Below are positions 17,640 through 17,656 of a DNA stretch of 64,000 nucleotides, in pieces; the first letter of the stretch is position 1, and each line of letters opens with the position of its first letter. The stretch comes from Escherichia coli. Lineage in GTDB: Bacteria > Pseudomonadota > Gammaproteobacteria > Enterobacterales > Enterobacteriaceae. The translations under genes were made by a program, and so were the position numbers. Where the stretch lies: assembly GCF_050920415.1 (NCBI RefSeq), contig NZ_CP169309.1. One strand, given 5' to 3'. Under the pieces are notes generated by a model. That model did no database searches. It was given only the letters and a program-made list of their open reading frames with translations, and was not told the DNA's origin.

Positions 17640-17656
17640 GTTTAAGGAGAATAACA

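Follow-up and report, generated by a model that had tools for sequence, protein, structure and literature searches.

In E. coli, the T6SS-2 island (PMC7216683, PMC13141884, PMC5363993) is associated with aspV (PMC5363993) and is described as two oppositely transcribed units: vipA2-hcp2A is treated as one cluster, and hcp2B-vgrG2 is transcribed in the opposite direction (PMC5874247); the same two-operon model is used for Shigella sonnei (PMC10924462). Of the two hcp genes, hcp2A goes by the name of hcp1 in PCN033, DE719, RS218, and EHEC (in EHEC it is Z0248), and hcp2B also by hcp2 or hcp3. The hcp2B gene has a promoter of its own by lacZ fusion, CpxR-P binds there in EMSA, and H-NS represses it (PMC6534853, PMC5874247); it is needed for XmtU delivery and interbacterial competition, and hcp2A is not (PCN033/APEC work including PMC5874247). 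On the structural side, an hns mutation and serum each raise the expression of hcp2A along with that of clpV2 (PMC5874247); a cpxR mutation lowers hcp2B-vgrG-xmtU and leaves hcp2A, vipA, and clpV within a twofold change (PMC6534853). A promoter swap in EHEC has shown that the tssB side is polycistronic at least to clpV, ten ORFs in, with the terminal hcp outside the assay (PMC13141884). TagA, a class B TssA-like protein with the architecture ImpA_N, TM, and VasL, sits at the distal end of the sheath and stabilises it in the extended state, as is known for the TagA proteins of EAEC and V. cholerae (PMC6745524).

The window analysed here, a stretch of 64,000 nucleotides from E. coli (contig NZ_CP169309.1 of assembly GCF_050920415.1), is chromosomal DNA in which a T6SS island lies by yafT and aspV, followed by dnaQ, rnhA, an rrn operon, metNIQ, rcsF, and proS; the island is the T6SS-2 of the E. 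coli literature. Its hcp is hcp2A, the second, more divergent Hcp paralogue of this island. The feature under study, the spacer between a vasL-like gene and hcp, has nothing out of the ordinary for a junction between two cistrons, and the system is a known one, with the published vipA2-hcp2A / hcp2B-vgrG2 layout. We consider it probable (at about 0.78) that hcp is transcribed by read-through from the tssB promoter and translated independently from a strong Shine-Dalgarno (SD) sequence.

The vasL-hcp junction and its operon

The island has the T6SS-2 order tssB-tssC-tssE-tssF-tssG-tagH-tssJ-tssK-tssL-tssH-vasI-tssA-tssM-vasL-hcp beside yafT/aspV (Table 1), as judged from NCBIfam matches, the annotation of 99.9%-identical genomes, and the tRNA-Asp, with tssB outside the window; the genes of the operon body were assigned from NCBIfam matches and the RefSeq annotation of near-identical genomes, and the same two sources place no VasH-type activator in the cluster. 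Positions 1-38402 of the window align at 99.95% to positions 3202-41601 of one of these genomes (L001), in which tssC is annotated at 2275-3759; not included in the window are tssB, the promoter of the operon, and, as placed from the nearest genomes, the divergent unit hcp2B-vgrG.

Table 1. Coordinates in the window of the vasL-hcp junction and the features around it.
Feature	Position	Strand	Remarks
3' part of tssC (sheath large subunit)	1..558	+	window starts inside tssC
tssB operon body: tssE, tssF, tssG, tagH, tssJ, tssK, tssL, tssH/clpV, vasI, tssA, tssM	563..16269	+	
vasL-like gene	16281..17639	+	TagA-class TssA-like protein; TGA stop at 17637-17639
Weak promoter-like string TTAAGC-N15-AAAAAT in the vasL coding sequence	17556..17582	+	PWM score 4.3, 98.8th percentile
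vasL-hcp intercistronic spacer gtttAAGGAGAataaca	17640..17656	+	17 nt, read directly from sequence
SD sequence AAGGAGA of hcp	17644..17650	+	6 nt before ATG
hcp, 159 aa	17657..18136	+	ATG at 17657; last gene of operon and island
AT-rich island edge between hcp and yafT	18137..18477	.	27% GC
Hairpin with U-rich sequence on both sides	18214..18253	.	11-bp stem, -14.4 kcal/mol
yafT lipoprotein gene	18478..19263	-	chromosomal backbone, not T6SS; converges on hcp
tRNA-Asp (aspV), known insertion landmark of the T6SS-2 island	19596..19669	-	Rfam tRNA match and annotation

The ORF downstream of the junction encodes a full-length TssD/Hcp, which matches TIGR03344 over residues 1-156 (E 9e-61; 204.6 bits against a cut-off of 58.9) and Pfam PF05638 (86.8 bits against 23.5); the nearest solved chains are the Hcps 6a2v and 3he1 (E about 1e-22). 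The protein encoded upstream carries ImpA_N (PF06812) at residues 13-114, a hydrophobic segment at residues 235-257 (Kyte-Doolittle mean 1.7 over 235-253), and VasL (PF12486) at residues 289-433, and thus has all the elements that define the TagA class. In RefSeq, both genes are annotated at the same coordinates in two 99.9%-identical genomes. A 288-aa ORF (17270-18136, GTG start), in frame with hcp and overlapping vasL, is a frame artefact, since the Hcp profile and all 15 orthologues begin at MANP/MANL; the same artefact may explain the overlapping or missing annotation of the terminal hcp noted for EDL933 (PMC7216683).

The original prediction placed hcp 17 nt after the vasL-like gene, behind a spacer with room only for a ribosome-binding site, at the distal end of an operon of roughly 18 kb. 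The distance is exact and the 17 nt include the AAGGAGA; the distal position in a long, packed operon likewise stands, but the predicted operon is 19.6 kb long and starts outside the window, with 16 tightly packed cistrons of which hcp is the last. The junction is not unusual: the gaps at the operon's 14 junctions span -37 to +25 nt, and 17 nt is typical among them.

Beyond hcp, the RNA fold of 18130-18290 gives z = -3.2, and the hairpin in this segment, judged from its sequence, probably ends the operon transcript and may do the same for yafT. The latter gene is annotated in strain N96 and many other genomes (RefSeq), and its translation has the lipobox LLAGC. K-12-like genomes, which do not carry the island, align only from about 18598 on, inside yafT; the last ~40 codons of yafT differ between island-bearing and island-free strains.

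Elsewhere in the window, the start of tssM is annotated inconsistently (12722-12850): strain N96 uses the GTG at 12742, which a strong AAGGAG SD precedes by 6 nt, and in the RefSeq record of MFDS1022581 the gene begins 90 nt further on, at a codon that is CTG in the window. The tssM of N96 is flagged as a pseudogene (internal stop), and that of the window is an intact ORF of 1175 codons; mutations in the 5' part of tssM are reported for EHEC (PMC12981562). The complete rrn operon at 27819-33047 (- strand; 16S, tRNA-Ile, tRNA-Ala, 23S, 5S, tRNA-Asp) is ordinary, and the leader region of its 23S gene matches StyR-44 of Rfam (31066-31174); the Rfam scan of the window found only rRNA, tRNA, and StyR-44, all elsewhere than near the vasL-hcp junction.

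A scan of one genome per species yielded 15 loci encoding an Hcp of the window type, among them loci of Citrobacter, Pseudocitrobacter, Superficieibacter, Phytobacter, Yokenella, and Atlantibacter, and one of E. whittamii. Of the 15, 13 have the order tssM-vasL-hcp, the spacer being 2-28 nt long; in the exceptions, Buttiauxella and an Enterobacter MAG, hcp stands directly behind tssM, at a distance of 71 or 42 nt. A GGAG core lies before hcp in 13/15 loci, and the rest of the spacer and the last ~15 vasL codons diverge freely. The seven alleles aligned from the Escherichia clade all have a 17-nt spacer, in which one base varies. The junction (17540-17700) is carried by 578 of 5426 E. coli genomes, of which 27 have the window allele (at least 99% identity) and 523 match at 90-95% (UPEC 536, for example). 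The terminal hcp of O157 and S. sonnei is still more divergent and is missed by megablast.

Some O145 strains have lost the whole T6SS-2 island and retain an intact hcp, the protein being identical to that of the window (L020 1380-1640 in NZ_CP031919.1 and L021 2430-2530 in NZ_CP006262.1, corresponding to window 17486-17660); one form has the last ~170 nt of vasL and the spacer behind yafV, and in the other (23 genomes) the backbone is joined to hcp within 1 nt of the ATG. On the left, the two forms end 2 nt apart, and the backbone at this place contains GTTTAAGGA, a 9-mer that the vasL-hcp spacer also has. In Buttiauxella brennerae (L009 2929-6476), the 71-nt spacer after tssM contains a perfect hairpin, GATGCCTCCTCAGG...CCTGGGGAGGCATC; hcp, a 304-aa ORF that no Pfam family matches, and a tandem of three paralogues (~157 aa each) come in this order before vasL. 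A gene for a LysM-domain protein or a glucosaminidase (PF01832) after hcp on the same strand, and then runs of small ORFs, are found in other Enterobacteriaceae at L011 3495-5230, L013 3495-6200, L014 3513-5255, L016 3516-4729, and L010 3723-6231.

Two hcp genes with separate regulation

In both genomes nearest to the window, L001 and L017 (99.9% identical to it), a second hcp (172 aa) and a vgrG are present; they were read there, since they lie outside the window sequence of its own strain. This hcp is located ~0.7 kb beyond the start of tssB, on the opposite strand, tssB itself starting ~1.45 kb ahead of the first letter of the window. The two Hcps are 29% identical, and that of the window is without nine residues in the L2,3 loop region. 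Which of the two published genes the window carries can be read from a primer: the forward RT-PCR primer for APEC hcp2A, ACGAAACCGGTGGACAAA, matches the window at 17841-17858 in 18/18 positions (the reverse primer has one mismatch), and the window gene is thus hcp2A. Its length is 480 nt, compared with the deletion of 483 bp reported for hcp1 of PCN033 (519 bp for hcp2), and by way of PMC5874247 and PMC4882540 we infer that it corresponds to the Hcp1 of RS218.

Codon adaptation separates the two genes, hcp2B having the highest CAI of the cluster (0.51) and hcp2A one of 0.32, with the rest of the cluster at 0.26-0.44; this is weak evidence, however, since the index, computed with Sharp-Li weights, does not separate tssB and tssC, which are at about 0.3 although certainly abundant, from minor components.

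These observations bear on a paradox raised by the original prediction, namely that the gene for a tube protein needed in large amounts should stand at the end of a long operon. The idea that the hcp of the window is the only tube gene of the system is not supported: the nearest genomes have a second one, with vgrG, divergent from tssB and with a published promoter of its own. With two sources of tube protein, one in the structural operon and one in the spike-effector unit, the paradox is removed; cut off inside tssC, the window shows a single hcp, which looked like the sole one though the system has two. This correction is the useful outcome, and the junction itself is of little importance: the arrangement is already published for the E. 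coli T6SS-2.

Transcription and translation of hcp2A

No promoter-like signal stands out upstream of hcp. A consensus scan of 16000-19500 found no sigma-70-like site on the + strand upstream of the gene; in a PWM scan of the last 500 nt of vasL, with approximate frequencies and heuristic scores, the best site is no higher than the 99th percentile of the background in the window, a level at which chance predicts about five sites and one is seen; no sigma-54-like match occurs on the + strand from 16706 to 17656. In a codon alignment of 13 vasL sequences, synonymous identity over the last 200 nt is 0.63-0.68, mildly above the gene mean of 0.58 and inside the gene's range (peak elsewhere 0.76), and thus without outstanding constraint; no significance is claimed for these values, since the 13 sequences are not phylogenetically independent. 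In the papers surveyed, we found no hcp2A-specific promoter, no 5'-end mapping at the vasL-hcp junction, and no RT-PCR spanning it. The view that hcp has no obvious promoter of its own is thus borne out, and so is the strength of the AAGGAGA: its predicted pairing with the 3' end of the 16S rRNA (-9.2 kcal/mol) is the second strongest among the 16 cluster genes scored, after that of vasL (-11.9) and ahead of those of hcp2B (-8.0) and the remaining 13 (-2.3 to -7.4). The further suggestion that stoichiometry is set by translation is favoured weakly by the strong SD, but hcp has ordinary codon usage, and SD strength does not track stoichiometry here, because the low-copy vasL/TagA has a stronger SD than hcp.

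In the reading that we favour, hcp2A would have no promoter of its own. Its transcripts would start at the bidirectional, H-NS-silenced tssB promoter, which separates tssB from the other hcp beyond the edge of the window, and would run through all 19.6 kb of the operon, in which hcp2A comes sixteenth and last. The yield of hcp relative to its neighbours would be set post-transcriptionally, by independent initiation at the strong, well-spaced SD of the 17-nt spacer; the position of hcp by the 3' terminator hairpin may also protect that part of the mRNA, and the demand for tube protein would be shared with the separately promoted hcp2B-vgrG unit.

Two other accounts of hcp expression place the control within vasL. 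A weak, positionally conserved promoter at the 3' end of vasL could provide hcp with an additional transcript of its own, independent of the operon and uncoupled from the H-NS-silenced tssB promoter, but we regard this as improbable. The only candidate consists of TTAAGC (17556-17561), a 15-nt spacer, and AAAAAT (17577-17582), with a predicted transcription start near 17589-17592; it ranks with the best-scoring sites ahead of hcp, in the window as in its relatives, but in the window it does not exceed chance, which predicts about five sites of this score in 400-500 nt; the 15-nt spacing is poor, and the -35 element matches at just 3/6 positions. Most loci have the -35-like TTAAGC at the corresponding place, the promoter-like string lying 65-80 nt before the ATG, and its Leu-Ser codons TTA AGC are retained in 11 of 13 orthologues despite the rarity of TTA; the site is nevertheless lost in L004 and L006, and synonymous conservation there is inside the range seen across vasL. 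The -10-like partner reaches TACAAT in Atlantibacter (L013; score 9.0) and AATAAT in L016 (7.2), but it falls on Lys-Asn codons in the variable tail of the protein, as an A-rich hexamer 15-18 nt after TTAAGC across loci. The one O145 lineage that retains exactly the last ~170 nt of vasL with an intact hcp, the island being otherwise lost, would fit such a promoter, but the second lineage (23 genomes) retains hcp without any vasL remnant. The island does have documented internal start sites at another place, the 3' region of paar (PMC13141884), and Hcp1 is secreted in LB (PMC4224132); against this, hcp2A co-varies with vipA and clpV in published qRT-PCR (PMC6534853). If the promoter existed, it would explain the Hcp seen in LB supernatants of ExPEC and the retention of ~170 nt of vasL with hcp in O145, would help to explain the different behaviour of the two Hcps, and would be a further level of control in a T6SS whose regulation is already complex and which is difficult to switch on in EHEC and Shigella; the finding would be incremental. 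Mechanical coupling, in which only ribosomes finishing vasL would open the hcp start, is more improbable still, and we give it hardly any weight. It would depend on the pairing of an anti-SD-like CCCUCC (17625-17630) and of UGCCA (17617-17621) with the SD and AUG region; the vasL stop codon lies 17 nt from the hcp start codon, the MFE fold from -40 to +20 around the ATG (-9.5 kcal/mol) does pair CUCC with GGAG and UGCCA with UGGCA, and the E. whittamii locus (L015) folds alike. The majority E. coli allele (536, ST3) and the closest Citrobacter and Pseudocitrobacter loci, however, read CCATCC, which breaks the pairing, and the junction folds differ in every genus; for these two reasons structural coupling is not proposed, and the anti-SD pairing, missing from the majority E. 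coli allele, was rejected as a conserved device. Moreover, the wider junction region is no more structured than shuffled sequence (z = -1.29), and a tie to a low-copy protein would not yield much Hcp.

A different possibility, which we hold tentatively and as compatible with read-through from the tssB promoter rather than opposed to it, concerns the demand for the protein: the terminal hcp might encode a low-abundance Hcp dedicated to a cargo, whose partner effector was lost in the window lineage, so that distal, unamplified expression would suffice. In other genera, genes for this Hcp type are directly followed by one for a LysM protein or glucosaminidase and then by small ORFs with signal-peptide-like N-termini, which look like effector-immunity modules such as Etse4/Etsi4; in EHEC and aEPEC, the terminal hcp1 precedes Etse4/Etsi4 itself, and secretion of Hcp1 is barely detectable compared with Hcp2 (PMC12981562). 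The window lineage has no such effector module after hcp. A dedicated role would also agree with the low identity to hcp2B and the shortened L2,3 loop region, with the requirement for hcp2B, and not hcp2A, in XmtU delivery and competition, and with the ordinary CAI of hcp2A, except that this index discriminates poorly, as the abundant tssB and tssC show. Against low abundance stands the finding that in APEC DE719 and NMEC RS218 it is the terminal Hcp that is found in LB culture supernatants, the other Hcp being found in lysates only (PMC4224132). Secretion of the orthologous Hcp1 of DE719 is reported to depend on DotU/T6SS2 (PMC4224132). The terminal Hcp is not dispensable, its presence in these supernatants requires appreciable expression from the distal cistron, and the question of how hcp is expressed is legitimate, not paradoxical; the evidence on the role of the terminal Hcp is mixed.

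Comparison with known systems

The T6SS-2 at aspV of other E. coli strains (APEC TW-XM/DE719, NMEC RS218, ExPEC PCN033, UPEC 536) has the same tssB-tssM-vasL-hcp order, the same yafT/aspV site, and, with the second gene read in the genomes nearest to the window, the same pair of hcp genes; the published hcp2A primer matches the window; in strains 536 and ST3, the spacer is also 17 nt long and differs from that of the window by one base. The window thus carries a minority allele of the junction, and its architecture is not different. In EHEC EDL933, aEPEC, and S. sonnei, the T6SS-2 likewise consists of two divergent operons read from one H-NS-bound intergenic region, and the terminal hcp1 likewise follows a vasL-like gene; it differs in that the terminal hcp is more divergent (the S. 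sonnei primer begins ATGGCAAATATAAGT) and is followed by Etse4/Etsi4, whereas the hcp of the window abuts the island edge, with no effector.

With proportional synthesis, in which the expression of operon genes is set by translation initiation, the junction shares a strong, conserved SD before a structurally abundant protein and a length too short for a promoter; the neighbouring low-copy vasL, however, has the stronger SD, and the likeness would be one of junction layout.

The large T6SS cluster of Vibrio cholerae (vipA to vasL) has nearly the same structural order and ends with vasL (VCA0121, which is TagA). The hcp genes of V. cholerae are located in auxiliary clusters, with promoters that depend on sigma-54 and VasH. 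The cluster of the window, in contrast, has no vasH and no sigma-54-like site, and carries one of its hcp genes directly after vasL.
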